A stretch of DNA of 41,097 bases from an uncultured Flavobacteriales bacterium (lineage in GTDB: Bacteria > Bacteroidota > Bacteroidia > Flavobacteriales > UBA7312). The first letter of the stretch is position 1. Every line of letters begins with the position of its first letter. Shown here one piece after another: positions 21,117 to 36,876 of this stretch. A program made the position numbers and the translations under genes. The stretch is taken from assembly GCA_964003875.1 (NCBI GenBank), contig CAXFLH010000003.1:1-41097 (forward strand), given 5' to 3'. The notes under the pieces are model-generated. The model saw only the letters and a list, made by a program, of their open reading frames with translations. It searched no databases and was not told where the DNA came from.

Positions 21117-21659
21117 TTAAGCAATTAAAACTTCTTTTTTTACGGTTGATTTTATTTTCAAAACTCTGTCAACACAGATTTTAAACCATGGTGTAAAAGT
21201 ATGAGGATTTTCGTTGATTTCCTGTATTAAATCGTTCGAATTTATATATCTATAATCTCCAACTTCAGATGGGTTAGGCTTAGGTTTTTCATCAGAGAAA
21301 CCGATATAAACATGATCTAGTTCATTTTCAATAAGTCCATTGTCAAACGAAGCACGATACAAGAAATTAAAAGCAAAAAACACATCACATTCTATTCCCA
21401 TTTCTTCTTTGAGTCGTCTTTCTGCAGCACGTTTTACTATTTCATTACCTCTAGGGTGACTACATGCTGTATTGCTCCACAGACCCGGTGTATGGTATTT
21501 GTGAAAAGCACGTTGTTGGAGTAACATTTCTCCTTTACTATTAAAAACAAAAATAGATATAGCTCGATGTAAAAGCCCTTTTTGATGTGCTTCTAATTTA
21601 CCTATTTTACCAATAGGGTTGTCATTTTTATCTACCAGTATAACTTGTTCTTCCATCAT
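21117..21659 (-). CDS. idi: Isopentenyl-diphosphate delta-isomerase type 1
   Basis: LHRAISIF, WSNTACSHP, ENELDHV and FTPWF. Confidence 0.96.
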   Translation of the reverse strand: MMEEQVILVDKNDNPIGKIGKLEAHQKGLLHRAISIFVFNSKGEMLLQQRAFHKYHTPGLWSNTACSHPRGNEIVKRAAERRLKEEMGIECDVFFAFNFLYRASFDNGLIENELDHVYIGFSDEKPKPNPSEVGDYRYINSNDLIQEINENPHTFTPWFKICVDRVLKIKSTVKKEVLIA

Positions 21660-22119
21660 TTAATGTTTTGAAAATTGGTATTATAAATTGTTGAAGTTCT
21701 TCTGAAGTTGTATAAATATTATTATTAATAAATTGACTATCCTCTTCCATATTTAGTTTGTAATCTAAAATAGCAGGAGTGCCGTCTTGTACACAAAATC
21801 GTAAAAATCTTAGTTCAATATCTTTAGGGTATTGACTAATCACCTTCTCTAATTGTTCTTTACCTTCTCCAAATGACTTGAGTTTATCAATAGGATTTAT
21901 AGCAAATTTACTCTGAAGTAAAATAGCGATAGCGTGGTATGTAAACTTCTTATAGCCACTTTCAATTGAGCTATTTTTTGTCAGTTCATACAGTTCGTTA
22001 GCCTTATCTTCTTCAAATGAGGCTTCTATGTACAATTCTCTAAGCTCCGAAAGATTAAGTTCTTGTGCTTGGATATTAGCTAAAGAGAGCAATAAGGATA
22101 TGATAATCCAAAATTTCAT
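21628..22119 (-). CDS. Exported hypothetical helical protein within the crt operon
   Basis: Signal peptide, KLKSFGEGKEQLE and ELRFLRFCVQ; overlaps crtB and idi. Confidence 0.75.
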   Translation of the reverse strand: MKFWIIISLLLSLANIQAQELNLSELRELYIEASFEEDKANELYELTKNSSIESGYKKFTYHAIAILLQSKFAINPIDKLKSFGEGKEQLEKVISQYPKDIELRFLRFCVQDGTPAILDYKLNMEEDSQFINNNIYTTSEELQQFIIPIFKTLNDGRTSYTGR

Positions 22120-22955
22120 ATCAAGTTAAATTGATTTTTGACCATAGATTGTAGCATCAAACTGATTTTATTAGAATTAGGAATTCTGATACGCTCTTGT
22201 AAAATTCTTGAAGATGGTAAGGATTTAATCTTGCGGAATAAATTATAATAATAGATATAAGCCAAATAGACTCCACCTCTAGAACTCAATGGTAGTTTTT
22301 TTATTCCAACAAGAGCATCTGCAAAATCAATTTCTATATCTTCTTCTATTTTTTGTTTATCTTCTTCTGAGAAGTTTACCATATTAACTCCTGGAAAATA
22401 GGTTCTCCCTAAATAGGAGAAGTCGCTGTTAGCATCTCTAAGAAAATTAACTTTTTGGAAAGCCGAACCTAAACTCATAGCACTAGGTTTAAGAGCTTCA
22501 TATTGTTCTTCTTTACCCTCAACAAAGACTTTTAAGCACATCAGACCAACTACTTCTGCTGAACCTAAAATATATTTATTGTATTTGTCGGTATCATAGG
22601 TTTGCAATTCATCCAAATCCATTTCCATACTATCTAAGAAAGTATTGATAAGTTCCCATTCAATATTGTAATCATGTACTACTTTTTGGAAACTATTTAA
22701 GATAGGGTTCAAGCTAATTTTAGATTTAATAGCGTCTATAGTATCTTGCTTGAATTTGTGAAACAAACGGTGTTTGTCATAATCGTGAAAGGTATCCACT
22801 ATTTCATCAGCAAATCGGACAAAGCCATAGATGCCATAAATAGGGGCGTGTAATCTTTTATCTAAGGCTTTGATGCCAAAGCTAAAACTTGTACTGTAGG
22901 CTATAGTTGTCAGCTTACTGCATTTGTCAGAGACATTGTCAAAAATATACTTCAT
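22116..22955 (-). CDS. crtB: Phytoene synthase
   Basis: YSTSFS, RFADEIVD, SAEVVGLMC and FQKVNFLRD. Confidence 0.97.
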   Translation of the reverse strand: MKYIFDNVSDKCSKLTTIAYSTSFSFGIKALDKRLHAPIYGIYGFVRFADEIVDTFHDYDKHRLFHKFKQDTIDAIKSKISLNPILNSFQKVVHDYNIEWELINTFLDSMEMDLDELQTYDTDKYNKYILGSAEVVGLMCLKVFVEGKEEQYEALKPSAMSLGSAFQKVNFLRDANSDFSYLGRTYFPGVNMVNFSEEDKQKIEEDIEIDFADALVGIKKLPLSSRGGVYLAYIYYYNLFRKIKSLPSSRILQERIRIPNSNKISLMLQSMVKNQFNLI

Positions 22956-22957
22956 AA

Positions 22958-24430
22958 TTAGATTAGGTTAGATTCTACAATGTGTTTTGCAACGACTTGC
23001 CCGGAAATAATAGAAGGGGGCACGCCAGGTCCGGGTACTGTCAGTTGACCTGTGTAGAATAGGTTATTTATTTTCTTATTAATAATTTTAGGTTTAAAAT
23101 TTGCAGTTTGAAGAAGTGTGTTTGCTAATCCGTAAGCATTGCCTTTGTAAGCGTTGTAGTCGTTTACGAAATCCTTAACACAATAACTTTTTTTATACTC
23201 AATATAATCTCTAATAGTCTGTCCTGTAAAGTTTTCAAGACGCTTAAGCATTATGTCAAAGTATTTTTCTCTAACACTTTCACTGTCTTTAAGTCCTGGT
23301 GCGATAGGCATCAAAAAGAAGATATTTTCTTTACCTTTTGGAGCTACACTTGGATCTGTTTTTGAAGGGCAACAAACATAAAATAGAGGTTTGTTGGGCC
23401 ACTGAGGATCAGTATAAATTTCATTGGTGTGTTGTTCAATATCTTCATCAAAAAATAAATTGTGATGAATAAGTTTATTGAGTTTTTTATTTACACCAAC
23501 ATAAAACAATAGGCTAGAAGGAGAGAAGGTTCTTTTTTGCCAGTAGCTATCATTGTAGTTTCTGTATTTAGGTGGTATTAATTTGCTGTCAACGTGGTTG
23601 TAGTCTGCTGAACCTACAACTATATCCGTTTCAAATATTCTTTTGTCTGTTACGATTGATTGGATAGTTTTATCTTCAATATTAACGGATTGTACAGCTT
23701 CGTTAGTATGAAATTCAACGCCTTGATCTGAACAAATTTCTTTGAAAGCATCAATGACTTTTCCAAAACCTCCCATTGGGTAGAAAGTACCTTTTTTAAT
23801 GCCTGAATAGGTCATTAGACTATATAATGCTGGAGTTTGGCTCGGTGCAGTTCCTAAGAATAGTACAGGAAACTCTAACAAAGATTTTAGATATGGGTTT
23901 TTAAAATACTTAGCTACATGCTTTCTGTAAGAAGTGAATACTTGTAGCTTAAAGACATTAGCAAAAAGCTCAGGCTTGCACACCTCTGATAGAGATAAGC
24001 CGGGTTCGTAAACCAATTGGTTGATGCCGAAGTCATATTTAAATTCGGCTTCTTTCATAAATTCTTCTAACTTTTTAGATGAACCTTTTTCAAAATGCTC
24101 GAACATTTCACAAACTTCTGACCATTCAGATGATAGTTTCATAGTTTTGTCTTGTTCGAAGATGATTTGAAAACCAGGATCTAATTGAATGAGCTCAAAG
24201 TAGTCACTTGCTTTTTTGCCAAATTGAGCAAAAAATTTATCGAATACATCTGCCATCCAATACCAACTTGGCCCCATATCAAATGTATAGCCTTCAGATT
24301 CAAATTGTCTAGCACGACCACCGATACTTGCGTTTTTTTCAAAGACACTAACTTGATGCCCTTCTTTAGCAAGAAAAGCAGCAGCGCTTAAGCCTGAAAA
24401 TCCACTTCCTATGACTGAAATTTTGCTCAT
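22958..24430 (-). CDS. crtI: Phytoene desaturase
   Basis: GSGFSG FAD motif, FDMGPSWY and GQLTVPGPGVPPSIISG. Confidence 0.95.
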   Translation of the reverse strand: MSKISVIGSGFSGLSAAAFLAKEGHQVSVFEKNASIGGRARQFESEGYTFDMGPSWYWMADVFDKFFAQFGKKASDYFELIQLDPGFQIIFEQDKTMKLSSEWSEVCEMFEHFEKGSSKKLEEFMKEAEFKYDFGINQLVYEPGLSLSEVCKPELFANVFKLQVFTSYRKHVAKYFKNPYLKSLLEFPVLFLGTAPSQTPALYSLMTYSGIKKGTFYPMGGFGKVIDAFKEICSDQGVEFHTNEAVQSVNIEDKTIQSIVTDKRIFETDIVVGSADYNHVDSKLIPPKYRNYNDSYWQKRTFSPSSLLFYVGVNKKLNKLIHHNLFFDEDIEQHTNEIYTDPQWPNKPLFYVCCPSKTDPSVAPKGKENIFFLMPIAPGLKDSESVREKYFDIMLKRLENFTGQTIRDYIEYKKSYCVKDFVNDYNAYKGNAYGLANTLLQTANFKPKIINKKINNLFYTGQLTVPGPGVPPSIISGQVVAKHIVESNLI

Positions 24431-24438
24431 TTGTAGTC

Positions 24439-25131
24439 CTATGATTTTACGAATTCATAAAATTCATTTCTTGTTTTATTGGACTTAATGAATTCTCCAG
24501 TTAATTTGGAGGTTTTCATAGATGTTCCTTGATGTCCTACACCTCTACATTGTACGCAATTGTGTGAGGCCTCAATCATGACTGCTACACCTTTATTATT
24601 TTCAACAATTTTGTTTATTGCATCGTGAATTCGAACGGTGAGATTTTCTTGAATAGCACCTCTACGAGCATAATGTTCAACAATTCTATTAAGCTTACTT
24701 AAGCCAATAATCTCTTGGTTAATTTGAGGAATATATGCTATGTGTGCTTTACCCATAATGGTTTGATGGTGGTGTGAACACATAGATATAATAGGAATAT
24801 TACCCTCAAATATGATACCGTCATATTCGTAATTAGGAAAAGTTGTAATTTTAGGAAAAGCATTGTAACGCCCTGCCCACAAGTCATTGACATATGCCTT
24901 AGCAACTCGTTTTGGAGTTTCCATGGAGTTGGGGTCGTTTTTCCAATCGCAACCCAAAGCGTCTAAAAACTCGCCAAACTTAACGGCAGCTTTATCAATC
25001 ATTTCAAGCTTTTCCTCTTCGCTCAAGGCACCATTGATATTTACTCCATCTGCATAACCTATATTTCTAAGTTCTGGGTTTAACTCAATGATTTGAGCTG
25101 ATGAGCCATTTATAAATTTGTTATTATCCAT
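24439..25131 (-). CDS. folE: GTP cyclohydrolase I
   Basis: TPKRVAK, SMCSHH, GLSKLNR, IQE and HNCVQCRG. Confidence 0.93.
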   Translation of the reverse strand: MDNNKFINGSSAQIIELNPELRNIGYADGVNINGALSEEEKLEMIDKAAVKFGEFLDALGCDWKNDPNSMETPKRVAKAYVNDLWAGRYNAFPKITTFPNYEYDGIIFEGNIPIISMCSHHHQTIMGKAHIAYIPQINQEIIGLSKLNRIVEHYARRGAIQENLTVRIHDAINKIVENNKGVAVMIEASHNCVQCRGVGHQGTSMKTSKLTGEFIKSNKTRNEFYEFVKS

Positions 25132-25540
25132 AATATTCTACATAGTTATTTTCTGTTTCATACAATTTTACGCTGTATAGATTGTTGCCTGTAGCTTGTA
25201 TATCACTTTCTAATTCTTCATAAATCTTTATGGCGATATTTTCAGCAGTAGTTATAGTATCTTTCATAAAATCAACTTCAAGGTTTAAGTTTTTGTGGTC
25301 CATTTTTTCAACTATTCTGTTTTTGATAATATCGCTCAATATTTTTAAGTCTATAACATAGCCTGTATCGGGGTCAACAGTTCCTTCAACAGTTACAAAT
25401 AAGTTATAGTTATGTCCGTGCCAATTTTTATTAGCACACTTTCCAAATATTTGCTCATTTTTTTCGTCAGACCAGTTTGGATTGAACAAACGATGGGCAG
25501 CATTGAATCTTTCTCTACGGATAACTTGTACGGTTTTCAT
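25124..25540 (-). CDS. 6-pyruvoyl-tetrahydropterin synthase family (C-X5-HGH type)
   Basis: FNAAHRL, GKCANKNWHGHNY, DHKNLN, TTAENI and ETENN; start taken at MKTVQV. Confidence 0.9.
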   Translation of the reverse strand: MKTVQVIRRERFNAAHRLFNPNWSDEKNEQIFGKCANKNWHGHNYNLFVTVEGTVDPDTGYVIDLKILSDIIKNRIVEKMDHKNLNLEVDFMKDTITTAENIAIKIYEELESDIQATGNNLYSVKLYETENNYVEYYG

Positions 25541-25541
25541 T

Positions 25542-25573
25542 TTGTATAAACTTACGAGGCTAAAATTATACAA
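25542..25573. promoter_or_regulatory. Operator copy 1, TTGTATAA-N16-TTATACAA
   Basis: Arms at 25542-25549 and 25566-25573 between the divergent PTPS and SDR genes; TAGCTTTG -7 element at 25581-25588. Confidence 0.8.
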
Positions 25574-25598
25574 AAATGCTTAGCTTTGCAAAAAAAAG

Positions 25599-26264
25599 AT
25601 GAAAATATTATTAATTGGTTCTTCCAGCGACATCGCTCGCTCTCTAGTAGAAAATACAAGTTCTGAGTTTGAATTTATCGAACTAACTTCAACACCAACC
25701 TTAGCCAATCAACACAAAATTGATATTCAAAATGAGGAAAGCTTCCTTCAAATTGATGGCGAAATCAATGGAATAGTCTATTTTCCTGGCTCAATAAACC
25801 TTAGACCTTTTTCAAGTTTGAAGCTGTCTGATTTTCAGACGGATTATGAAATTAATGTATTGGGTTTGATCAAAACAATGAAGCATTATCACAAACAATT
25901 AGCATCGGATTCATCGGTAGTTTTTATCAGTTCTGTTGCAGCCTCAGTTGGGATGCCTTATCATGCTTCTATTTCGATGTGTAAGTCTGCTATAGAAGGA
26001 CTTTGTCGTTCTCTTGCTGCCGAGTGGTCGCCTAAGGTCAGAGTTAATTGCATTGCACCATCTGTTGTACAAACTAAGTTGTCTTCTCGTTTGTTTAGAA
26101 CAGATGCTCAGGTTGAGCAAATGAATGCCCGTCACCCTCTACAAAAGGTCGGTCAGCCCAAAAATATATCGGACGCTATTTCATTCTTATTGTCTGATAA
26201 GTCTTCTTGGATTACCGGACAGACTTTGCATGTTGATGGTGGACTCTCTAGCTTAAAAAAATAA
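25599..26264 (+). CDS. SDR family oxidoreductase (atypical active site)
   Basis: IGSSSDIA, FISSVA, RVNCIAPS and WITGQTLHVDGG; YxxxK replaced by ISMCK. Confidence 0.9.
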   Translation: MKILLIGSSSDIARSLVENTSSEFEFIELTSTPTLANQHKIDIQNEESFLQIDGEINGIVYFPGSINLRPFSSLKLSDFQTDYEINVLGLIKTMKHYHKQLASDSSVVFISSVAASVGMPYHASISMCKSAIEGLCRSLAAEWSPKVRVNCIAPSVVQTKLSSRLFRTDAQVEQMNARHPLQKVGQPKNISDAISFLLSDKSSWITGQTLHVDGGLSSLKK

Positions 26265-26266
26265 AA

Positions 26267-28342
26267 ATGTTTTCATTCATTTGGCGGTTTAAATACCTGC
26301 TTTCCATTGTCAGCTTAACATTATTTGTCTTTTGTTTTAAGCAACTGCTCAATGCTAATATTTATTTTGATTCTGAAAGGATTATCAATGAATTGGAAGC
26401 TGCCAATGTGGATATCAATGTCTTAGACGATAACAATTTAGTCTTTTTTGGAATGACCTTTGAGGATAGTTTAAGCTATCAAGATATGTTAGATGTTGCG
26501 GCTTTTCACAAATCCTTGAAAAAGTCAGACTATGTGAAGCGTGTTTTTAGTCTTGTAAATGACCGTCAAATTATAAATACGGGCTTGTTTCCAATTTCCA
26601 AAAAAGTATTGAACGTAAATGATAAAGAATCTTACATAAAGTCTATTAAAAAAATAGGTGCTCATGGAAATAACTTCATATCGTCTGATGGAAAGAAGTT
26701 ACTTTTTTTAGTGGAAAATATGTCTAGTCTTAGTAAAGATGATAGTCGAAACTTTGTCAAATCTTTGTATGAAACGGATTTGAACGAAAACATGACTGAA
26801 GTGTTTGTTAGTGGCCGTTTGCCTAGTGAATTATATTTTGAGAATAAAGTCATTCAAGAATTCATAATACTTACTTTAGTTAGTGGATTTTTATGCTTTT
26901 TATTTTTATTGTTCATTACAAAAAATCTGAAGTTAGTTGTACTAACTGTCTTTAGTGTCATTGCTAGTATAGTTGTGAGTCTAGGACTTTCTCAAGTTTT
27001 ATTTGGAGGTATAGAATTGGTAATGATAATTACACCAGCAATCTTATTCATTGTTTGTCTTTCTGATATAATGCATTTAACCAATAAACAATCCAATGTT
27101 ACCTCATCTAAGGGTGCGTTCTTTCATATGAGAATGGATACAGTTGGCAAGGCTGTTGCTTTAACTTCTATAACTACAGCTATGAGCTTTTTGACATTTT
27201 TGGTTAATGATGTAGTACCTATACTTCGTTTTGGCTTAATCACTTCCGTAGGCGTTGTTTTCACACTTTTTATTGCCATCTTAGTTTATGCCATAAGTGT
27301 AGATAAGAACTTTAACGAATCAAGCCCTGTGAAAGTAATTCAACAATTTACAGATGCTGTAATAAGCTTTTTGAAAAATGGGCAAAGGTCTAAGTCTTTT
27401 CATTTTTTTATGGCGATTTTAATTGCCGTTGGTTTGTATGGGGTGACTAATGTTCAAATAGATAATTACCTGACTGATGAAATCAACAAAAAGTCAAAGA
27501 TTTATCAGCAGACAGCTTTTTTTGACAGTCATTTTGGAGGGATTAAACCCATCACTATTTTTTTAGATAAAGAAAACCTTAGTGATTTAGAGGTATTGTC
27601 ACAAGTCGAAAAATCCATTGAAGGATTGGGCTTTATGGTTGATTTTTCTAATACTAATACGACTTCTATGATGTTAGAGCAACTAGGTTTCGCTGATCAA
27701 GATTTAGTCGACAAATATTTTTACATATGTCGCTCTGGCGATGAGGGTTCGCTAGCAACCTTAGAAAAATTAAAATCTTTAGAAAATGAATATACGGCAA
27801 GTGGTTTAGAGTTTAATTATTCTGGTGCTGGATATTTATTTGATATTCTAGGTAATGACCTAACTAGACAGCTTATTTTCGGCTTGCTAATTGCTATATT
27901 TTCTATTGGCTTAGTGTTCTTTTTGCTAAATAAGTTTGACTTCAATTATTTCATTATTGCGATTGTCCCTAATTTGACTCCTATCGTTGTTTGTGTAGGC
28001 TTATTGTATTTGAATGGCTTTTACTTTAGCCTGTCAAATGCCTTCATTTTTACTATAGTTTTTGGATTAATAATTGATGATTCTATTCATCTAATTAGTG
28101 CCTATGCTAATGCTAGAAAAAGAAAAATATCAAAGTCAGAATCTTTGGATGTAGTCGTTAGTAAAACTGGTGACGCTATTCTTAAAACTACTTTGATTGT
28201 TATTATCTGTCTTTTTCCACTTTCTTTTTCGGAGTTTAAGTCTGTTTCTCAGTTATCGGTCATTACGATATTGAGTGCTTTTATTGCTGTCTTTTTCGAT
28301 TTGGTTTATTTACCCTTAATTATCAAAAAACTAACTAAGTAG
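26267..28342 (+). CDS. MMPL/RND family membrane transporter
   Basis: Two membrane repeats with SDIMH / DDSIH, TSITTAMSF, PILRFGL and FGG motifs. Confidence 0.85.
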   Translation: MFSFIWRFKYLLSIVSLTLFVFCFKQLLNANIYFDSERIINELEAANVDINVLDDNNLVFFGMTFEDSLSYQDMLDVAAFHKSLKKSDYVKRVFSLVNDRQIINTGLFPISKKVLNVNDKESYIKSIKKIGAHGNNFISSDGKKLLFLVENMSSLSKDDSRNFVKSLYETDLNENMTEVFVSGRLPSELYFENKVIQEFIILTLVSGFLCFLFLLFITKNLKLVVLTVFSVIASIVVSLGLSQVLFGGIELVMIITPAILFIVCLSDIMHLTNKQSNVTSSKGAFFHMRMDTVGKAVALTSITTAMSFLTFLVNDVVPILRFGLITSVGVVFTLFIAILVYAISVDKNFNESSPVKVIQQFTDAVISFLKNGQRSKSFHFFMAILIAVGLYGVTNVQIDNYLTDEINKKSKIYQQTAFFDSHFGGIKPITIFLDKENLSDLEVLSQVEKSIEGLGFMVDFSNTNTTSMMLEQLGFADQDLVDKYFYICRSGDEGSLATLEKLKSLENEYTASGLEFNYSGAGYLFDILGNDLTRQLIFGLLIAIFSIGLVFFLLNKFDFNYFIIAIVPNLTPIVVCVGLLYLNGFYFSLSNAFIFTIVFGLIIDDSIHLISAYANARKRKISKSESLDVVVSKTGDAILKTTLIVIICLFPLSFSEFKSVSQLSVITILSAFIAVFFDLVYLPLIIKKLTK

Positions 28343-28702
28343 TCATAAGCCATTAAGCTCGGCTTTGAAAAAAGACCATAAGTTTTCGGGAAGATTATCT
28401 TGATCAAAAAAATCGTAGTGGTCATTCTCGTGATTGAGTGAAATGTCACTGCCTTTAGTTTTCGACTTATAAAACCAATATTCATCATTATTAAATGTGC
28501 AGTGTTTTACGAATTGAGGGTTATGTAGCTCTATGCTAGTTTCTTCTTTGGTTTCTCTTATTACAGCTAGATTTGGTTTTTCGTTAGGCTTTATTTTGCC
28601 AACCACTGGTGTCCATATGCCTGGGTAAAAGGGATTAGTCAAAGTCCTTTTTAATAATAGTACTTTATTGTCTTTGAATATGAAGTGGACACAATATTTC
28701 AT
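28343..28702 (-). CDS. NUDIX hydrolase
   Basis: Nudix box GKIKPNEKPNLAVIRETKEETS; start at MKYCVH overlapping the upstream stop. Confidence 0.9.
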   Translation of the reverse strand: MKYCVHFIFKDNKVLLLKRTLTNPFYPGIWTPVVGKIKPNEKPNLAVIRETKEETSIELHNPQFVKHCTFNNDEYWFYKSKTKGSDISLNHENDHYDFFDQDNLPENLWSFFKAELNGL

Positions 28703-29493
28703 TTTTGAACTTTTGGGCAATACCAACTCTTTCTTTGGTCAGAGGTTGTACTACTTATAACCTCATTTCCATATTCATCTTTTTTCTTGCCATACACCTT
28801 AAGTTCAAATTTTGAGACGTGAAAAGGGTTTTTGAAATCTTTGAGTTCGGCACCGCCACTTATATAACTGCTTTGCATGATGTCTTTAGTAGCTAGTAGT
28901 AGTTCTTTGACTTTTTTGGAAGACAGTTTGCCCCATTGTTTTTCAGGGTGTAATTTGGTGGCATACAAGGCTTCAGATTTGATGTAGTTGCCAACACCTG
29001 GAAAGAAGCGTTGGTCCATGAGTGTTGAACAAACAGACTTGCTTTGATTGACTTTTTGTTTGAGGTGTTTCAGGTGCTCGTCAAAGTCATAATCTTCATT
29101 AAGAAGGTCATAAGTGTTGAAATGCTTTTGTTGAAGTTGTTCTTTATTGAGAATTCTCATTTTTCCAAACTTTCTGACATCTCTAAAGAACAATTCTCTG
29201 TCTTCAGCGCTAACTTTAAAATGACAATGTTTTATGTTATTCTCGCTCCAACCACCAGTCATACCGAGGTGGAAATTAAAATATTGTCCATTGGAAAGGG
29301 GTAAAAAAATGTTCTTTCCTATGGTGAATGTGGCTTGAAAATCTTTTGGGTGGTATTGCTTTATACAGTCAAATACGTCTGCATACTTTTTTTCATAATA
29401 TTCAGTAAGTAATTCAAATTTAATATTTTTTGCTCCGTCAAAAAACGAATTATAATAGGAAGATGCTATTTTAACCTCGGGTCCTTCAGGCAT
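28699..29493 (-). CDS. Fpg/Nei family DNA glycosylase (Nei-like, zincless finger)
   Basis: N-terminal PEGPEV, HLGMTG, DVRKFG and H2TH GVGNYIKSEALY; no four-Cys zinc finger. Confidence 0.92.
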   Translation of the reverse strand: MPEGPEVKIASSYYNSFFDGAKNIKFELLTEYYEKKYADVFDCIKQYHPKDFQATFTIGKNIFLPLSNGQYFNFHLGMTGGWSENNIKHCHFKVSAEDRELFFRDVRKFGKMRILNKEQLQQKHFNTYDLLNEDYDFDEHLKHLKQKVNQSKSVCSTLMDQRFFPGVGNYIKSEALYATKLHPEKQWGKLSSKKVKELLLATKDIMQSSYISGGAELKDFKNPFHVSKFELKVYGKKKDEYGNEVISSTTSDQRKSWYCPKVQK

Positions 29494-30047
29494 TATTTTA
29501 ATACAACAATAACTTCGTTTCTTCTATTCAAAACTTTGTAAGGCGAGTCGTAAACCAACAATTCAAATTCATCGGTATATGCGATATCGTATTTTTCAAG
29601 TGTATCTATTAATTCTTGTTTTTTACGCTTGACCTTAGTGCTATTGGAGTATCCTGAAAAGCGAATAGCAGCTACTTTTCTTGAATCCATTTTTATTATA
29701 TCTATCTCATTGGAGTTAGGGGTGGGCAAACTCTCCATTTCATAGCGTTCTGGCATAAGGAACATCATTTCTTTATTTTTTGAGGATAAACGCATATTAA
29801 CAGGTGAAGTCATACCAATTTGTTCGTTTTTATCATTTCCACCAAATATATAATTGGCAAGTACTCTAAATTGAGAGTTATTGCCTGATTGCGAAAAGTG
29901 ACTGGCATATATAAGTGCTGGATACTGCCTAATTTCGACAGAATCTATGGTTCTAATGATATTGTAGTTTTCAGTTTTACTCACGCTAAAAGAAAATAGG
30001 GCATATACACTAAGTATAGCTATGGTTAAAAATAATAATTTTTTCAT
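29493..30047 (-). CDS. SOUL heme-binding protein (exported)
   Basis: EIRQYP, FRVLANYIFGGN, IGMTSPV, AAIRFSG and RRNEV. Confidence 0.92.
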   Translation of the reverse strand: MKKLLFLTIAILSVYALFSFSVSKTENYNIIRTIDSVEIRQYPALIYASHFSQSGNNSQFRVLANYIFGGNDKNEQIGMTSPVNMRLSSKNKEMMFLMPERYEMESLPTPNSNEIDIIKMDSRKVAAIRFSGYSNSTKVKRKKQELIDTLEKYDIAYTDEFELLVYDSPYKVLNRRNEVIVVLK

Positions 30048-30574
30048 TATTTCAGTTTTTCAATAATTTGTTCATCTAGTGGGTTTACGCCACTTTTGAA
30101 ATAAGCAATTAACTCTCCGTCACCGTTTATCAAAAATTTATTGAAGTTCCATGACACCTCAAAATTATCTAATTCGTTTTGCTCTTTGTTAGTCAGCCAA
30201 GCATAAAGTGGGTGCTGATTTTTTCCTTTGACATTTACTTTTTCTGTCATAGGAAATGTCACATCAAACTTACTTTCACAAAATGTTTTTATCTCTTTTT
30301 CGCTTGCTGGCTCTTGTGACCCAAACTGATTGCAAGGAACAGCTAGTACTACCAGTTGATTAGCGTATTTCTGACTTAGCTTTTGCAAATCGGCATACTG
30401 TGAAGTATAGCCACAATAGGAGGCAACGTTTACTATTAGAATGTATTTACCTTTGAAATCTGACATTTTGATTTCTTTATTTTCTATAGATGGTATAGAT
30501 AATTCGTAGAAAGATTGAGAATAAGTTGAGTTCATAATAAAAAATGAAAATATAATTAGAATAAAGGGTCTCAT
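30047..30574 (-). CDS. Glutathione peroxidase family (Cys type)
   Basis: NVASYCGYT, PCNQFGSQEP and WNFNKFL. Confidence 0.95.
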   Translation of the reverse strand: MRPFILIIFSFFIMNSTYSQSFYELSIPSIENKEIKMSDFKGKYILIVNVASYCGYTSQYADLQKLSQKYANQLVVLAVPCNQFGSQEPASEKEIKTFCESKFDVTFPMTEKVNVKGKNQHPLYAWLTNKEQNELDNFEVSWNFNKFLINGDGELIAYFKSGVNPLDEQIIEKLK

Positions 30575-30588
30575 GCTGTTGCTGTGTT

Positions 30589-30621
30589 AAAAAAAGTGAG
30601 AGAGTTTTCACTCTCTCACTT
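30589..30621 (-). terminator. Rho-independent terminator of the fasciclin gene
   Basis: 12-bp stem (AAGTGAGAGAGT 30594-30605 / ACTCTCTCACTT 30610-30621), GAAA loop on the minus strand, followed by a T-tract. Confidence 0.85.
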
Positions 30622-30649
30622 AAAAATCAAATTAACCTTGATTTACAAT

Positions 30650-31984
30650 CTACTTGCGTAGATTGTATCTTTTTATACTTGTTCCATTAGAATAGATGTC
30701 AACTAAAATCTTCTCTTGAGAATCTCTATCGACCAATTCACCTAATAGATTTATGGTGTATAAATATTCTATATCTTTTTCATTTAAAAACGCATTTATT
30801 GTTGTAGGCTCATCATCTGCTATTAGTACAGCATTAATGACATGTACTACTCCATTGTTAGCTACAATATCAGGTTGAATGACTGTTGACATATCAATCA
30901 TTACGCTACCAGCATCTATACTGACAACTAATACATCATCGTTCAATGTTGGTACTTCCATACCATCAGATAAGTCTGTTGATATCACATCACCGGAGTG
31001 AACATGGTGTAAGAGTATTTCTGTCAAAAGAGGAATATCAGCAAGTAAGTCGTCTAATGCTCCTGCAGGTAATGCATCAAAAGCATCGTCTGTTGGTGCA
31101 AATACTGTAAATGGACCGTCGCCCGAAAGTGTTTCGCCTAATTCTGCGGCATCAATTGCTCCTTCTAAAGTAGTGTGAATTGGAGATGCCTTGATAATAC
31201 TGTAAACGGTTGTGTCCTCTTGCCCAAAATCGGGTAATAATACTTTGTCAATAACATGTACTACTCCATTACTTGCGATTAAATCAGCTTGTGTAACTGT
31301 AGCAAGATCAATCATTACAGTCATGCCGTCAATCGATACAGTAAGTTCAGTCTCATTAAGTGTTGGTACCATCATAACATCAGATAAGTCTGTTGATATC
31401 ATATTGCCAGAGTGAACGTGATTCAATAATAAATTTGTTAATTGCTCGGTATTTGCTAATATTAAGTCTAAAGCACCAGCAGGTAAGCCATCGAATGCAT
31501 CGTCAGATGGGGCGAATACTGTAAAAGGACCATTACCGGACAGTGTTTCAACTAAATCAGCTTGTGTAACAGCAGTTTCTAAGATATTGTGATCTTCTGA
31601 ATTTACTATAATGTCTACTACCGTACCGTTATTTACTACATTTATAACCCCAACCATTCCTTGAAGTGCATGATTACCAACAGAGCAATCATAGTTATAA
31701 GTGCCTTCTAAATTAAATGTGTGCGTATAGATAGTAGCACCAACTGTGTTAGTAGAAGGTGAGTTAAAACTTTCAGGATTATTAAAACTTTCTCCTGAAA
31801 TAGAACTAATGTTTCCATTAACATCGTGTGTGCCTCCATCATTAATCCAAACAACTGTATCGCCAACATGTATTGTAAGTTCATTTGGAGTGTAATAGTA
31901 CATTCCAGAATTGACTTGATGTACAGTAGCAAATGCTGTTAATGAAATTAGGGATAAAAATATGGTGCGTAGTAAATGTTTCAT
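30650..31984 (-). CDS. Secreted cupredoxin + 2x fasciclin (FAS1) protein with T9SS-like C-terminal domain
   Basis: Signal peptide; type-1 Cu ligands H(DVNG)...C-SVGN-H-ALQG-M; two GPFTVFAP(S/T)DDAF...NGVVHVI domains; C-terminal TINLLGE...DIYSNGTSIK. Confidence 0.88.
   Translation of the reverse strand: MKHLLRTIFLSLISLTAFATVHQVNSGMYYYTPNELTIHVGDTVVWINDGGTHDVNGNISSISGESFNNPESFNSPSTNTVGATIYTHTFNLEGTYNYDCSVGNHALQGMVGVINVVNNGTVVDIIVNSEDHNILETAVTQADLVETLSGNGPFTVFAPSDDAFDGLPAGALDLILANTEQLTNLLLNHVHSGNMISTDLSDVMMVPTLNETELTVSIDGMTVMIDLATVTQADLIASNGVVHVIDKVLLPDFGQEDTTVYSIIKASPIHTTLEGAIDAAELGETLSGDGPFTVFAPTDDAFDALPAGALDDLLADIPLLTEILLHHVHSGDVISTDLSDGMEVPTLNDDVLVVSIDAGSVMIDMSTVIQPDIVANNGVVHVINAVLIADDEPTTINAFLNEKDIEYLYTINLLGELVDRDSQEKILVDIYSNGTSIKRYNLRK
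30830..31620. repeat. Internal tandem duplication encoding the two FAS1 domains (period 414 nt)
   Basis: CATCAGATAAGTCTGTTGATATCA at 30964 and 31378; CATGTACTACTCCATT at 30841 and 31255. Confidence 0.85.
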
Positions 31985-32033
31985 AATTTATTTTGTTTAG
32001 TTAAGATGGTACAAATATATAACTTTTTTAAAT

Positions 32034-32065
32034 TTGTATAAATTTTTTGCAATAATGTTATACAA
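32034..32065. promoter_or_regulatory. Operator copy 2, TTGTATAA-N16-TTATACAA
   Basis: Arms at 32034-32041 and 32058-32065, flanked by divergent TATATTTG -7 elements (32012-32019 minus, 32072-32079 plus). Confidence 0.8.
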
Positions 32066-32128
32066 AATACATATATTTGCATAACATTTTAAGACTATAG
32101 TGTCTATAAAACTTTAATAATTGGTACT

Positions 32129-32293
32129 ATGCCAAGAAAGAAGAAGCAAAGAATTTCAATAGAAGAAATAAAAAAAAGAACTCCAAAAATTATCTTTTAC
32201 ACAGATAAAATGAAAATCAACTTAAAATCGATGAGTAGTTTGGATTTTTGGTTTAATAAATACCCAAATGGTAAATATATAGTCAATGACTAA
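32129..32293 (+). CDS. Small basic protein (54 aa), unannotated
   Basis: MPRKKKQRISIEEIKKRTPKIIFYTDKMKINLKSMSSLDFWFNKYPNGKYIVND*; lies after the promoter and overlaps the regulator start by 8 nt. Confidence 0.6.
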   Translation: MPRKKKQRISIEEIKKRTPKIIFYTDKMKINLKSMSSLDFWFNKYPNGKYIVND

Positions 32294-33167
32294 GTATAGT
32301 ATAGACCAGTTTTCACAAATTACGGGTATTACAAAATTTGTGTTGAGGACTTGGGAAAACCGATACGGTTTTCTAAAGGCTAAGCGTACTGACACAAAGA
32401 TTCGTTTCTACACCGACGATTTACTTGTTCGTGCTTTAAATTGTAATTACCTATTAGAAAACGGGTACAAAATTTCAGCTATTTCTAAATTATCACATGA
32501 TGAAATATCAACTAAGGTAGACGAAATTAAAAATAGTGCTGAAGATAATTCGATAGAGTCCTATTACATTGCCAAGTTGATAAAGTCAGCTCTTGATTTT
32601 GATTCTAATTTATTCAATTCAACTTATGAAAAAGGTGTAAAGGAGTTGGGTATTATTGAATTTTATAAATCGGTATTATTAGTGACCTTCTCTAAGATTG
32701 GTATTTTTTGGCTCACTAATAGAATTGCCCCTTCGCAAGAACATTTTTTATCGGAATTAATAAAACAAAAAATTGGTGCAGCAGCCGATTCAGCTTCCAA
32801 CAATAAAATTAAAAAAGACTCGTGGCTCTTATTTTTACCAGAAAATGAATTTCACGAAATAGGATTAATTTTTGCTAAGTTTTTATTAATCCAAAACGGA
32901 TATGAAGTGGTTTATTTAGGTTCTAATGTGCCATATGGTTCTTTATTGCAATTAGCAGAGAAAAAACACATAGATAATGTGTTATTCTTTTCTGTTTCTA
33001 ATACGTCGAAAAGCAATTTAGATTTTACCATTAATTATTTGAACAAATCATTCCCAAAGTCTAAACATTTTCTAGTTGCTAATAGCTTAGATATTAATTT
33101 TCTCACAAAAGAACACGATATCACAATACTAGATAATCTAGATGATTTTGTAAAAATTATTTCTTAG
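32286..33167 (+). CDS. MerR family cobalamin-binding regulator (CarH/LitR-like photoreceptor)
   Basis: MerR HTH (LRTWENRYG, RFY), W-x9-EH (WLTNRIAPSQEH), E-x-H-x-x-G (EFHEIG) and YLGSNVP. Confidence 0.9.
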   Translation: MTKYSIDQFSQITGITKFVLRTWENRYGFLKAKRTDTKIRFYTDDLLVRALNCNYLLENGYKISAISKLSHDEISTKVDEIKNSAEDNSIESYYIAKLIKSALDFDSNLFNSTYEKGVKELGIIEFYKSVLLVTFSKIGIFWLTNRIAPSQEHFLSELIKQKIGAAADSASNNKIKKDSWLLFLPENEFHEIGLIFAKFLLIQNGYEVVYLGSNVPYGSLLQLAEKKHIDNVLFFSVSNTSKSNLDFTINYLNKSFPKSKHFLVANSLDINFLTKEHDITILDNLDDFVKIIS

Positions 33168-33567
33168 AAATATTTCTACTTTCAATTAACTTCCGAATAA
33201 ATTTTTTGTGGCCTTTACTATCTACAACCCTTAATTTTATTGTATAGTCATTTATTTGGACTTCTAAAACTCCATCGTTATTCAAAAAACTGATTTGATT
33301 GTAGCGTGACATTAAAACATACTCCTCATTTTTATGTCTAAAATATACTGCTACACCTTTGGATCTGAGCTCAAATGTACAATACACTAAATCTGTATAT
33401 TCTTCAAAATCTATCTCAAAATTCTTTGGGCTTATTTTTAGTAATAGATATTTAGGAGAACCATAAAAACCATTTTTGATTTTTTGAGCTAAGGTGTAAG
33501 GATTGCCGCAAATTGCGAATAAATTTTCTCTGATTTTTTTCTGATTTTGACTTGTTTTAAATAGCAT
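33157..33567 (-). CDS. Conserved flavobacterial hypothetical protein
   Basis: GNPY...GFYGSP...FELRSKG; start at MLFKTS, since the track's upstream extension lies inside the operator. Confidence 0.7.
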   Translation of the reverse strand: MLFKTSQNQKKIRENLFAICGNPYTLAQKIKNGFYGSPKYLLLKISPKNFEIDFEEYTDLVYCTFELRSKGVAVYFRHKNEEYVLMSRYNQISFLNNDGVLEVQINDYTIKLRVVDSKGHKKFIRKLIESRNISKK

Positions 33568-33577
33568 AGTTGTATAT

Positions 33578-33609
33578 TTGTATAACAAAATTAACAAAAA
33601 GTTATACAA
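33578..33609. promoter_or_regulatory. Operator copy 3, TTGTATAA-N16-TTATACAA
   Basis: Arms at 33578-33585 and 33602-33609; minus-strand TAATTTTG (33586-33593) lies in the spacer. Confidence 0.8.
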
Positions 33610-33651
33610 TACTATCATTTATTTGAAAAATTGAGTTTTTTACACTAGACT

Positions 33652-34113
33652 ATGGCGCATTACCAACTTCGAAAAGAACAGTTTCTAAAAACAGATATTC
33701 ACACTATTTGGGATTTTGCATCCTCTCCAGCCAATCTGAAGGAGATTACTCCTGATTATATGCTATTTGATATAACATCAAAAGACCTACCAGAGAAGAT
33801 GTATCCTGGAATGATTATTTCCTATAAAGTTTCCCCTTTGTTAAATATCAGGATGAATTGGGTAACAGAAATAACACAGGTAAAAGACAAACATTTTTTT
33901 ATAGATGAGCAACGTTTAGGTCCTTACAAAATGTGGCACCATCAGCACTTTTTCGAAGAAAAAGATGGTGGTGTATTAATGACTGATATTGTCACTTATA
34001 TTCCTCCCTTTGGTATACTTGGTGATATCGCTAATATTGTGCTTATCAAAAAACAATTGAAAGGCATTTTTGACTATAGATTTAAAGTAATGGATGAAAA
34101 ATTTAATCAATAA
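33652..34113 (+). CDS. SRPBCC family protein
   Basis: WDFASSPANLKEITP, WVTEIT and FIDEQRLGPYKMWHHQHFF. Confidence 0.92.
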   Translation: MAHYQLRKEQFLKTDIHTIWDFASSPANLKEITPDYMLFDITSKDLPEKMYPGMIISYKVSPLLNIRMNWVTEITQVKDKHFFIDEQRLGPYKMWHHQHFFEEKDGGVLMTDIVTYIPPFGILGDIANIVLIKKQLKGIFDYRFKVMDEKFNQ

Positions 34114-34115
34114 AT

Positions 34116-34595
34116 ATGAAACGACCTTGGAATATAATTAGCCCTCCCGTTTATAGTTTAGTGACTTATGACGAACAAGGAAAAGTCAATATGAATATAT
34201 GTACTTATGTTTCGGCAGTAAGTATGAAGCCAAAAATGTATTCTATAGCCATAGATTACACCACCAAAACCTATAAAAATTTAGAAAAATCATCTAAGGT
34301 GGTTCTTCAATTGTTAAGTGCTTCTAACCTTAAGGTAATAAGAAAGTTAGGTAAAATTAGTGGTAAGCTATTTGATAAAGACCGTTACCTCAATTCATAC
34401 AATTTACTTCAATCTTGGAAAGATTATAATGTTCTAAAAGATACTTGTGCATTAATTGAGTTAGAAAAAAAATCGGTAGTCAATAATCACGGAGATCATG
34501 CTATTTTTTTATTTGACGTTACTAGTTTTAAAACCATTTCTGAAAAAAATGTCCTTTCATTTCAGGATTTAGTAGATAACAGAATAATACTATAA
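34116..34595 (+). CDS. Flavin reductase-like (split barrel) protein
   Basis: VSAVSMKP, LGKISG..FDK and GDHAIFL. Confidence 0.8.
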   Translation: MKRPWNIISPPVYSLVTYDEQGKVNMNICTYVSAVSMKPKMYSIAIDYTTKTYKNLEKSSKVVLQLLSASNLKVIRKLGKISGKLFDKDRYLNSYNLLQSWKDYNVLKDTCALIELEKKSVVNNHGDHAIFLFDVTSFKTISEKNVLSFQDLVDNRIIL

Positions 34596-34602
34596 TATAT
34601 AT

Positions 34603-35235
34603 ATGCACCTTACAAAAGAGCAAATACAACAAACTTCACGAATCAAGCGTCTTAATATAATTAACTCAATTACGGGTGTTAAACCAGCAAATTTAATTGG
34701 TAGTATTTCTGAGAATGGGCATAGTAATTTAGCTATTTTTAGCTCTGTAGTTCATTTGGGAAGCAATCCTGCTCTTTTGGGTTTTATCTTACGACCTCAG
34801 CACGAGGTTAGGAGAGATACGTATGATAATATTATGCAAACGAAATATTACACTATTAATCATATTCCCTTTAACTATATTGAAAATGCCCATTACACCT
34901 CGGCTAAATTTGATAAGGAAGATTCAGAGTTTGATAGGTGCAAGTTTACTGAAGAATATTTATTTGATTTCGATGTACCTTTTGTAAAAGAAAGTCGTGT
35001 CAAGATAGGATTAAAGCTAGAAGAAATGTTACCTATCGAGCTGAATAAATGTGTAATGGTTATTGGTTCCATACAGCATTTATGGGTTGATGATGTGGCA
35101 GTCGAAGCCGATGGTCAAATCAATCTTGAGTTATTAGATGATGTTGGAATAGGAGGTTTGAATAGTTATTATAAATTAAAGCGTATTGCTCAGTTTCCTT
35201 ACGCAAGGGTTCAAGAATTGCCAAATTTTAAGTAG
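34603..35235 (+). CDS. Flavin reductase family protein
   Basis: KPANLIGS, NLAIFSSVVHLGSNP, RDTYDNI, YTINH and PFVKES. Confidence 0.88.
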   Translation: MHLTKEQIQQTSRIKRLNIINSITGVKPANLIGSISENGHSNLAIFSSVVHLGSNPALLGFILRPQHEVRRDTYDNIMQTKYYTINHIPFNYIENAHYTSAKFDKEDSEFDRCKFTEEYLFDFDVPFVKESRVKIGLKLEEMLPIELNKCVMVIGSIQHLWVDDVAVEADGQINLELLDDVGIGGLNSYYKLKRIAQFPYARVQELPNFK

Positions 35236-35238
35236 ATA

Positions 35239-35379
35239 ATGAAAAAGTCTCTACCATATAAAAATTGTTTGATTTGTCAGAAACCTTTTTCTTGGCGTAA
35301 AAAGTGGGAACGGGTTTGGGAGGACGTTAAATATTGCAGTGAACGATGTAGAAGAAATAAAAATAACACGAATGGATAG
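35239..35379 (+). CDS. DUF2256 small Cys-rich protein
   Basis: Manual translation [46 protein letters not shown]; below the ORF-track cutoff. Confidence 0.92.
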
Positions 35380-36859
35380 TGTAAATATAATTTTACCTAA
35401 TCAGCTTTTTAAGCATAGTGATTTATTGGATAATACCTATCCTGTTTATCTCGTTGAGGAATATTTATTCTTTAATCACTATCAATTCCACAAGCAAAAA
35501 TTAGCCTTTCATAGAGCAAGTATGCAGTTTTATAAATCTTACCTTCAAGATTTAGGTAAGAAGGTTCATTACATTTCGGCTACAGACTCTAATTCGGATA
35601 TCCGTAGGCTTTTGGAAAAGTTAATTAGTGAGGGTGTTCAAGAAGTTCATTTAATTAATCCCGTTGACAATTGGTTAGAAAAACGAATTTCAAATGCTAC
35701 TAAAGATATCCAATGTGTCGTTTATGAAAGCCCCTATTTTATTAATCATTCGGATGAGTATTCTGAATTTTTTAAAACAACTAAAAAGAAGTTTTTTCAA
35801 ACCTCATTTTATATTGAACAGCGTAAAAGATTAGGTATTTTACTAGATGAAAATGCTTCGCCAATAGGGGGCAAGTGGAGTTATGATACAGAAAATAGAA
35901 AGAAATATCCAAAAGGTAAAACGCCACCCAAAATCACTAAGCTTGAGTCCAATGATTTTTATATTGAGGCGGTAGGTTATGTCAAAAGCAATTTTTCTGA
36001 TAACCCCGGGGATTTGTCTCAGACTCCAATTTATCCCAATGATTATCAACAATCTATTGAATGGCTCAATGATTTTTTAGACCAACGATTTCATGACTTT
36101 GGTGTTTATGAAGATGCTATAGTAGATTCAGAACATTTTCTAAATCATAGTGTTCTTACACCCATGTTAAACGTAGGTTTACTGACACCCATGCAAATTA
36201 TTGATAGTGTGTTAGAATACACTAAGCAAAATGATATACCTTTAAATTCTTTGGAGGGTTTTATACGACAAATCATTGGTTGGAGAGAGTTCATTAGAGG
36301 TATTTATGTGGCTAAAGGGACAGAAGAAAGAAATCGCAATTTCTTTCAGCACAAACGAAAAATACCATCCTCTTTCTATGATGGTACAACTGGCATTATT
36401 CCTATTGATACGACCATACGCAAATTATTAAAAACAGGCTATGCTCATCACATTGAACGACTAATGATTTTAGGTAATTTTATGTTATTGTGTGAGTTTG
36501 ACCCTGATGAAATATACCGTTGGTTTATGGAGCTATTCATAGATGCTTATGATTGGGTAATGGTGCCCAATGTATATGGTATGAGTCAATTTGCTGATGG
36601 TGGTCTAATGTCCACTAAGCCGTATATTAGTAGCAGTAACTACTTAAAAAAAATGAGTAATTACAAAAAGGCTCAATGGCAAGAAATATGGGACGCTTTG
36701 TATTGGCGTTTCATCGATAAACATAGAGAAGTATTTAATAAAAATATTAGAATGAAATTTATGGTTTCTATGTATGATAAAATGTTAACTGAAAAGAAAG
36801 AAAAATTCATCATTATTGCAGACAATTATTTTAAGTCTTTAGACGTTGAACTCAATTAA
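35372..36859 (+). CDS. Bacterial (6-4) photolyase / cryptochrome (PhrB/CryB family, lacking FeS cysteines)
   Basis: [44 protein letters not shown] and TKPYISS; start at MDSVN. Confidence 0.92.
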
Positions 36860-36876
36860 AAAATAAATTACAATAT

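Follow-up and report, generated by a model that had tools for sequence, protein, structure and literature searches.

A 32-bp palindrome with a 16-nt spacer as the probable operator of a CarH-type regulator in uncultured Flavobacteriales

The operators of the characterized CarH proteins consist of tandem 11-bp direct repeats of the unit nAnnTnnACAn, three in Thermus and four in Bacillus, according to the accessible text of PMC8156234, which also ties the protein motif Wx9EH to the adenosyl-group pocket and to dimer packing and describes the Myxococcus xanthus CarA/CarH operator at the carB promoter as a region of about 55 bp overlapping the -35 element. In Pseudomonas, the footprint of the class II LitR proteins PplR1 and PmlR2 comprises T(G/A)TACA-N12-TGTA(C/T)A over the -35 element, and a LOV partner is needed (PMC9758184, available sections). 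In Dokdonia sp. MED134, the genes for proteorhodopsin, crtB, crtI, a MerR regulator, photolyase and cryptochrome/DPRP proteins were found to be upregulated in the light (preprint 10.1101/2023.12.25.573297, available part), and a MerR gene beside crtI is mentioned in the available part of a flavobacterial genome announcement (PMC4732338), while the accessible portion of a paper on a Vibrio cholerae MerR protein gives a sigma-E motif and no MerR operator. Transcriptome studies of marine flavobacteria have reported that light induces genes for proteorhodopsin, carotenoids and photolyase, and the switch is unnamed in the literature searched; within that literature, outside of which lay most subscription journals and all supplements, neither the motif treated here nor a control of proteorhodopsin by CarH/LitR proteins is described. 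Here, a stretch of 41,097 nt (contig C3, in the following called the window) from the assembly of an uncultured Flavobacteriales bacterium (1.49 Mb in 146 contigs, 86% complete, 34.6% GC) was analyzed with regard to the 32-bp palindrome TTGTATAA-N16-TTATACAA, which we propose as the very probable operator of the CarH/LitR-type regulator encoded in the same stretch at 32286-33167.

Three exact copies of the palindrome were found in the window, at 25542-25573 (site 1), 32034-32065 (site 2) and 33578-33609 (site 3), each with a different spacer and each in a short intergenic region with divergent open reading frames (ORFs) on either side. Site 1 is located between the minus-strand operon of 6-pyruvoyl-tetrahydropterin synthase (PTPS), whose ATG is 1 bp away, and a plus-strand SDR gene with its ATG at a distance of 25 bp; site 2 separates a minus-strand fasciclin/copper-binding gene from a plus-strand unit composed of a small ORF and the regulator gene; and site 3 lies 10 bp from the minus-strand gene of a 136-aa protein and 42 bp from the plus-strand gene of a 153-aa protein. 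The distances from site 2 to the small ORF of 54 aa downstream and to the regulator ATG are 63 and 220 bp, respectively, and this site is the predicted autoregulatory site of the regulator unit. Site 3 was kept with 0-1 mismatch in the orthologous loci fetched for genera g1-g3. The preliminary description of this DNA had reported three such copies with 8-bp arms, N16 and differing spacers, no further copy in the window, a position of each between divergent genes and on or near TAnnTTTG promoter elements, and one copy ahead of the regulator's own unit, all of which was borne out by the exact matches, the ORFs and the box positions.

The exact motif occurred in none of 100 dinucleotide-preserving shuffles of the window. 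Since the two arms were counted 70 and 55 times in the whole genome, the number of exact N16 pairs expected there is 0.0026, and the three copies observed are far in excess of it. When spacers of 0-40 were scanned genome-wide, exact pairs were detected at N16 only (three), and with up to one mismatch N16 gave five pairs as compared to zero or one at any other spacer. With up to two mismatches the six pairs at N16 were not distinct, because other spacers reached 0-8 pairs. Allowing up to three mismatches added a single match in the window, at 34371-34402 within the ORF 34116-34595, and this level is chance-like (four matches against a mean of 1.22, with at least four in 6 of 100 shuffles).

A logo built from 79 unique sites revealed that conservation reaches past the searched arms, with T at position 0 (79%) and C at position 9 (48% vs. 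17% in the background), followed by positions 10-12, which are A/T without G/C, and an information-free centre at positions 13-20. On its ACA-bearing strand the arm reads A-n-n-T-T-A-T-A-C-A-A and fits the CarH unit nAnnTnnACAn, and every arm matches this 11-bp unit as given in the accessible text of PMC8156234, in agreement with the earlier suggestion that a CarH/LitR core is present in the arms. The neighbouring unit of a tandem array is absent from the same logo, C amounting to only 6% where a tandem unit would need it. Thus, two inverted units are found instead of tandem 11-bp direct repeats, with overlap of the promoter, and it should be kept in mind that tandem repetition is a trait of the characterized CarH operators and not of the protein family.

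Exact TAnnTTTG boxes were located in the window at 25581-25588 (+), 32029-32036 (+), 32072-32079 (+), 32012-32019 (-), 33573-33580 (+) and 33586-33593 (-). Counted from site position 1, the SDR unit at site 1 has its box at 40, and site 1 covers the -33 region of this unit because the -7 box is the one at 25581-25588; the PTPS operon on the other side shows one-mismatch boxes only, at 6 and 20. The regulator unit at site 2 has boxes at -4 and 39 and the fasciclin unit one at 47 (32012-32019), and at site 3 the box of the plus-strand unit is at -4, sharing TTG with the left arm, and that of the 136-aa gene at 17. The same numbering was applied to exact boxes in a survey of 128 site-gene pairs, which include many orthologous promoters and therefore give counts that are not independent. 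In 41 pairs the box was at -4, its end being the TTG of the arm, in 11 pairs at 6, its start being the TA of the arm, and in 9 pairs at 17 within the spacer; in 29 pairs it was at 37-41, so that the site covers the -33 region, in 12 pairs at 47-49, i.e., 15-17 bp past the site, where the operator reaches the expected -33 region, and in 9 pairs at 59-62, i.e., 27-30 bp past the site with the operator upstream of the expected -33. At most of these promoters, a bound protein would hence lie over the -7 box, over the start point or over the -33 region, and this overlap with -7 or -33 elements fits repression. That a single site might gate two operons, as had been suggested, is likewise consistent with boxes on both strands overlapping or adjoining each site, those on the minus side of site 1 being one-mismatch boxes only.

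Two side observations concern the arrangement of sites and boxes. The box starts (-4, 6, 17, 37-41, 47-49 and 59-62) step by roughly one helical turn, which may reflect a face-of-helix constraint or mere arm overlap together with shared promoter ancestry. Furthermore, two tandem N16 sites are present at some regulator or target promoters (loci L050 of G021, L124 of G193, L125 of G268, L030 of G034, L090 of G014 and L123 of G044), with offsets of about 64 bp in three genomes and of 33, 41 and 45 bp in the others.

The positions of the boxes also bear on the possibility that the palindrome acts in RNA, where its arms would form a stem of 8 bp around a 16-nt loop, or that it is a repeated or mobile element or an accident of AT-rich sequence. 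The arms are indeed complementary and the genome is AT-rich, yet chance would yield the 0.0026 pairs calculated above, the arms are near-invariant instead of covarying, the flanks are unrelated and the sites serve genes on either strand. Moreover, with a box at -4, 6 or 17 the start would fall inside the site and one arm would therefore be untranscribed, and a search of 24000-37000 against Rfam returned nothing at E values up to 0.1. We regard all three of these explanations, taken together, as extremely unlikely.

The distribution of the palindrome was followed in 41 genomes, namely the source genome and 40 relatives (20 of the same family and 20 of other families), at up to one mismatch. Sites were present in 20 of 20 same-family genomes, with one to seven each as compared to zero or one for the reversed control, and in 4 of the 20 genomes from other families, i.e., G021 (three sites), G028 (five), G034 (two) and G023 (one). 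Across orthologous sites, for example those corresponding to site 1, the arms were kept while the spacers varied. Close orthologues of the regulator (at least 44% identity) were found in the source genome and in 16 of the 20 family genomes, the four without one being 66-81% complete; outside the family they occurred only in G021, G028 (two copies) and G034, and the lone one-mismatch match of G023 was in a genome with no regulator homologue. In the eight genomes with only 29-40% identical homologues, no motif match was detected at this threshold, and inspection by eye of the regions upstream of such homologues showed no N16 palindrome. In a fresh test with genomes picked by motif status from the order-wide scan described below, all five further motif-positive genomes had a homologue of 41-56% identity, and four of five motif-negative genomes of family f3 (98% complete or more) had none; the fifth carried a short form of 236 aa preceded by the variant TTGCATAA-N16-TTATGCAA. 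At all six homologue loci of this test, at least one N16 site with 1-3 mismatches was present within about 500 bp of the regulator start. The link of the motif to the encoded MerR/B12 regulator that had been put forward from the window is thus supported by its occurrence with close orthologues and by its position: in all families examined it precedes the regulator gene, also when this gene has other neighbours, and each of the orthologous loci inspected had a site upstream of this gene.

Two further loci were noted in the course of this comparison. The short-form homologues L126 (G178) and L127 (G089), both from genus g38 of family f3, comprise 226-236 aa and align only to residues 4-184 of the regulator, and in the arms of their N16 sites TGCATA replaces TGTATA, which looks like co-variation of operator and regulator. 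Upstream of the 33%-identical homologue L051 (G035, family f16), TGTAC-N6-TGTACA is found in an 11-bp register and resembles the tandem-repeat operator type, not the N16 palindrome.

Adjacency and co-occurrence are correlative, and another transcription factor might bind the palindrome with the regulator gene merely as one of its targets. We consider this quite improbable: the motif tracks the close orthologue group across families, also where neighbour genes differ, the arm matches the CarH recognition unit, and neither the island genes nor the flanking genes scanned yielded any further DNA-binding domain. The reading of the 32-bp palindrome as the operator of the regulator at 32286-33167, derived from comparative sequence analysis, is held with high confidence.

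The regulator, a protein of 293 aa encoded on the plus strand, combines a MerR winged helix, a four-helix bundle and a Rossmann domain. The winged helix was recognized by Pfam as MerR_1 with 53.6 bits (cut-off 21.6), and residues 4-69 align to the DNA-binding domain of Thermus thermophilus CarH (TtCarH), with which the predicted fold agrees. The alignment to TtCarH (5c8d) extends over residues 4-232 (E 1.6e-12) and includes both Wx9EH and ExHxxG: W142-x9-E152-H153 of the four-helix bundle is aligned to the Wx9EH of TtCarH, and the E/DxHxxG motif of the Rossmann domain is present as E188-F-H190-E-I-G193. None of these six residues (W142, E152, H153, E188, H190 and G193) varies among 18 aligned orthologues. 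An AlphaFold2 model computed from the alignment of these orthologues reached a mean pLDDT of 90.4 and a pTM of 0.87, and a Foldseek search of the PDB with it returned full-length TtCarH chains as top matches (E 2.8e-13, 290 aligned columns). The sequence identity between both proteins is about 21%, and the predicted cobalamin-binding domain superposes on that of TtCarH with a TM score of 0.82-0.84 (normalized to the target chain) and an rmsd of 3.1 A.

Beyond the window, the source genome contained three extra sites at up to two mismatches, as many as the reversed control (three). The first of these, C39:1456-1487 (one mismatch), is positioned 1 bp ahead of the gene of a protein of 361 aa that carries the FAD-binding domain of photolyases, and such a short photolyase-like gene has a site 1-22 bp from its ATG in eight genomes (orthologues L061, L063, L066, L079, L083, L092 and L093). 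In this protein (L005:369-1454) the FAD-binding domain is near the N-terminus and matches full-length photolyases from about residue 221 on, and an extra C-terminal extension of about 170 aa is of obscure nature. The second, C17:11171-11202 (one mismatch), is 3 bp ahead of a pyridoxal phosphate-dependent (PLP) enzyme of Cys/Met metabolism; within the genus of the source genome this site has one mismatch in 3 of 6 copies (the source genome included) and three mismatches in one; in the remaining two it is missing or degraded, and other genera lacked it. Either the regulon was extended in this genus alone or the site is due to chance. The third, C37:6115-6146 (two mismatches), is located 42 bp ahead of the proteorhodopsin gene, which is followed by a blh-like ORF, in an intergenic region shared with divergent umuD/umuC-like genes (L006:1-1378), the start of the umuD-like gene being at a distance of 122 bp. 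The names blh, umuD and umuC were assigned by reading the translations, and Pfam confirmed only Bac_rhodopsin and Peptidase_S24. The genome-wide scan for other light genes that had been recommended in the preliminary description thus matched proteorhodopsin with blh and a photolyase-like gene.

The proteorhodopsin site was followed further in the 41 genomes. In the family, the best N16 match upstream of all 16 proteorhodopsin genes had 0-3 mismatches (none in two, one in two, two in seven and three in five), the second-best match having 4-6, and its distance to the ATG was 38-45 bp in 15 of the 16 and 75 bp in one. Elsewhere, the best matches at proteorhodopsin had six mismatches in G031, which holds a distant regulator homologue only, and four in G028. 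An alignment of the 125 bp upstream of proteorhodopsin showed conservation only in the two arms, in a TATAT(A/G)TTTG box 7-8 bp past the right arm and in the leader. For the relatives, 81 unique sites with up to one mismatch were collected and 63 flanking ORFs were scanned with Pfam. Proteorhodopsin was a target at this level in four genomes and a 750-aa fasciclin protein with a type IX secretion system (T9SS) sorting domain in five; the plastocyanin/fasciclin protein beside the regulator and the divergent pair of PTPS and SDR genes were likewise recurrent, a 246-aa protein of the fatty acid desaturase family was found in three genomes of one genus, and YceI-like (two), GIY-YIG (two), aldehyde dehydrogenase (one) and 1-deoxyxylulose 5-phosphate (DXP) synthase (one, at 168 bp) genes were further targets.

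With regard to the supply of the cofactor, the source genome encodes a cob(I)alamin adenosyltransferase of the PduO type (203 bits) and two further B12-binding ORFs, and no CobA/BtuR type, no CbiC and no CobS were found in it. The adenosyltransferase was present in all of five relatives that are 97-100% complete and CbiC in none of the five. This pattern, in which the lack of corrin biosynthesis is judged from one or two marker families, fits cells that salvage cobalamin from outside and convert it to adenosylcobalamin.

As for taxonomic scope, the exact motif was detected in 43 of 401 genomes of the order, belonging to six families: 19 of 20 in f1, the family of the source genome, 1 of 2 in f2, 12 of 62 in f3, 7 of 16 in f9, 1 of 5 in f13 and 2 of 17 in f15. 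It was found in none of the 62, 62, 61 and 61 genomes of families f5, f8, f16 and f17, respectively, and in none of the smaller remaining families of the order. The reversed control was exact in 4 of the 401 genomes, and the match in f13 may be due to chance because the same genome also holds the reversed control. Save for this f13 genome of 4.6 Mb, the motif carriers have genomes of 0.8-2.1 Mb. In a phylum-wide sample the exact motif was present in 0 of 120 other genomes, and distant homologues of the regulator occur without the site. The designation as a Bacteroidota light regulon in the preliminary description was therefore too wide, and the scope is that of a few Flavobacteriales families, not of the phylum.

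Taken together, we propose that one CarH-type recognition unit would be formed by either arm in its longer form, approximately (A)AAG-TTATACAA-A, and that two such units would stand inverted, with their ACA ends outward and the information-free centre between them. In the dark, an oligomer of the regulator loaded with adenosylcobalamin would position a pair of DNA-binding domains on the arms, at a distance of about 24 bp from each other. At one or both of the divergent promoters, either the -7 box with the start or the -33 region would thereby be occupied and RNA polymerase blocked. In the light, photolysis of the cofactor would let the oligomer fall apart and turn on the regulon, predicted to comprise the regulator unit, the synthesis of carotenoids and pterins, flavin proteins along with photolyase-like ones, enzymes against oxidative damage, fasciclin-type surface proteins and proteorhodopsin with blh. 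Binding, repression, B12 dependence, light response and stoichiometry are the parts of this scheme that we infer, and the full mechanism, i.e., the palindrome as the operator of a B12-dependent photoreceptor-repressor that is relieved by light, is considered likely, with less confidence than is placed in the palindrome being the operator of this regulator.

Several observations weigh against this mechanism. The regulator scored 76 bits with the NCBIfam CarH model as compared to a cut-off of 400 and 21.4 bits with Pfam B12-binding_2 as compared to 23, PF02310 gave no match, and the canonical GG of the B12 motif is not evident in the orthologue alignment; since motifs and fold match those of CarH in the face of scores below the cut-offs, the protein appears from sequence and model to be a divergent but complete CarH-type regulator. 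The site, with two inverted units and none inside, does not correspond to the binding mode on tandem direct repeats that was solved for TtCarH. Occlusion is less obvious in those 21 site-gene pairs in which the -7 box is found at 47-62 bp, counted from site position 1, because the operator would there lie upstream of -33. The proteorhodopsin site of the source genome has two mismatches and is not significant on its sequence alone, and the genomes compared are related, so that the co-occurrence counts are not independent events. Finally, the CarA-type paralogues described in the accessible text of PMC8156234 indicate that a B12 motif does not guarantee B12-dependent action.

This last point leads to the alternative that the palindrome is the operator of the regulator and that no light is sensed by adenosylcobalamin, the signal entering via another protein in a manner similar to CarA or class II LitR; the cryptochrome/photolyase-like protein or the conserved 54-aa or 136-aa neighbours would be candidates for this role. 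CarA binds its operator without needing B12 despite its motif (PMC8156234, accessible text) and class II LitR needs its LOV partner (PMC9758184, available sections), the regulator diverges from the curated CarH and B12-binding models as described above, and two conserved proteins of obscure function are under the same predicted control. On the other hand, Wx9EH and the His of ExHxxG are invariant in the 18 orthologues, no LOV, BLUF or PAS domain was found in the island by the Pfam scan, and genomes in which CbiC, a marker of corrin-ring synthesis, was not detected retain the adenosyltransferase. We judge this alternative to be unlikely and favor light sensing through adenosylcobalamin.

It may then be asked what a B12-dependent switch would imply for these organisms. 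The motif gives a testable pair of regulator and operator and a prediction of a light regulon from metagenome-assembled genomes of uncultured lineages. If the proposed mechanism is true, phototrophy and sun protection would be linked to the supply of an externally acquired vitamin, an inverted repeat with a long spacer would join the tandem repeats among the sites recognized by CarH, a point of importance for the structural understanding of this photoreceptor, and CarH-based optogenetic tools would gain a new operator design. In its widest form, which we see as evenly balanced between right and wrong, the proposal is that in abundant, streamlined marine Flavobacteriales, apparently without corrin-ring synthesis, a B12 photoreceptor directly gates proteorhodopsin phototrophy and photoprotection through a new CarH geometry (inverted units 24 bp apart with a symmetric pair of domains), in which one oligomer would silence two divergent promoters and dark repression would need B12 from other microbes.

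The genes of the light island itself were labelled by means of a Pfam scan and the ORF list. Leftwards of site 1, seven close-packed genes are encoded on the minus strand at 20664-25540 with gaps or overlaps of up to 32 bp, in the order PTPS, GTP cyclohydrolase I, phytoene desaturase, phytoene synthase, a 163-aa protein of no assigned function, a NUDIX protein, which we take to be idi-like, and a 147-aa protein, presumably CrtZ-like, for which Pfam gave no match. Rightwards of site 1, an SDR reductase and a membrane protein of the MMPL/Patched type are encoded on the plus strand at 25599-28342. The pterin genes at 24439-26264 (GTP cyclohydrolase I, PTPS and the divergent SDR, which is weakly similar to pteridine reductase) are joined to the carotenoid unit, and their presence in a unit predicted to be light-controlled suggests light-induced pterin, perhaps as photolyase antenna or sunscreen. 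Leftwards of site 2, five minus-strand genes at 28343-31984 code for a fasciclin/plastocyanin-like protein, glutathione peroxidase, a SOUL haem-binding protein, an Fpg/Nei glycosylase and a NUDIX protein, and because of a 75-bp gap after the first gene their single operon is a tentative assignment. Rightwards of site 3, the plus-strand unit at 33652-38124 comprises the 153-aa protein, two flavin-reductase-like proteins, a photolyase-related protein of the DPRP/FAD_binding_7 type and a metallophosphoesterase, its extent being equally tentative because of a 103-bp gap before the photolyase-related gene. The remaining genes of the window have housekeeping functions.

Between these units, the lysine-rich 54-aa ORF at 32129-32293 (plus strand) overlaps the start codon region of the regulator gene by 8 nt. 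It was found with 76-100% identity in 14 of 14 loci of family f1 that hold the whole region, with a mean column identity of 87%, and weaker homologues are near the regulator in two f3 genomes; the 54-aa protein may be a partner of the regulator. It could not be aligned with a DUF2452 protein at the same place in G021, and a complex prediction of the regulator with the 54-aa protein, run without controls, gave a score of 0.00 and counts neither way. The 136-aa protein is encoded on the minus strand at 33157-33567, has its -7 box inside the spacer of site 3 and was found with 50-94% identity in 10 loci. For the 54-aa, 136-aa and 153-aa proteins, no credible family was detected in Pfam or NCBIfam. 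The stretch 25000-34900 was encountered mainly in DNA runs from seawater and marine metagenomes (13 runs from 8 studies, shares 0.41-0.86), the shares in RNA runs being only 0.05-0.06. Four metatranscriptome contig sets contained fragments 90-99% alike over several island genes, among them a contig of 603 nt that runs across the 54-aa ORF into the 5' portion of the regulator gene; these fragments carry no transcript ends and no light/dark information.

Canonical MerR activators, which bind as coiled-coil dimers to a short palindrome in an overlong promoter spacer, differ from the present system in several respects: here the half-sites are 24 bp apart from centre to centre, the position of the box relative to the site varies from -4 to 62 and the C-terminal part of the regulator is, according to the predicted model, a B12 module and not a coiled coil with an effector site. 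In Myxococcus, as here, a large operator overlapping the -35 region controls carotenoid genes through a regulator that combines a MerR-type domain with a B12 module. Unlike the compact 32-bp palindrome, that system employs two dimers or four units and the antirepressor CarS, and no CarS-like protein was identified in the present locus. With the class II LitR proteins, the palindromic hexamers of the TGTAYA type are shared, which there overlap the -35 element and repress light-inducible folate/pterin and photolyase genes (PMC9758184, available sections). However, the hexamers are separated by 12 bp in class II LitR and by 18 bp here (TGTATA-N18-TATACA), their variable position is on opposite sides in both systems, and sensing via LOV contrasts with an island in which no LOV was found and the B12 motifs are intact; in line with this, the combination of TRTACA-N12-TGTAYA and an adjacent LOV gene that characterizes class II LitR was not observed. 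The genes induced by light in Dokdonia sp. MED134 are the same set as the predicted regulon, and the account of them, in its available part, describes neither an operator nor a mechanism. Among the families sampled in the order, those with large genomes do not carry the exact motif (0 of 62, 0 of 62 and 0 of 61). With CarH from Thermus thermophilus and Bacillus megaterium, both adenosylcobalamin photoreceptor-repressors, the regulator shares the domain order, Wx9EH together with ExHxxG, the predicted fold and the A..T..ACA unit; moreover, as in Thermus and Bacillus, the operator is on the promoter, the regulator gene is apparently autoregulated and carotenoid genes are among the targets. By contrast to those systems, two inverted units with ACA outermost, about 24 bp from centre to centre, flank an information-free centre, the promoters are of the -33/-7 type of Bacteroidetes, and the predicted regulon is much wider and includes proteorhodopsin. 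Neither the protein family nor the recognition unit of this locus is new, in contrast to the architecture of the operator and the reach of the regulon.

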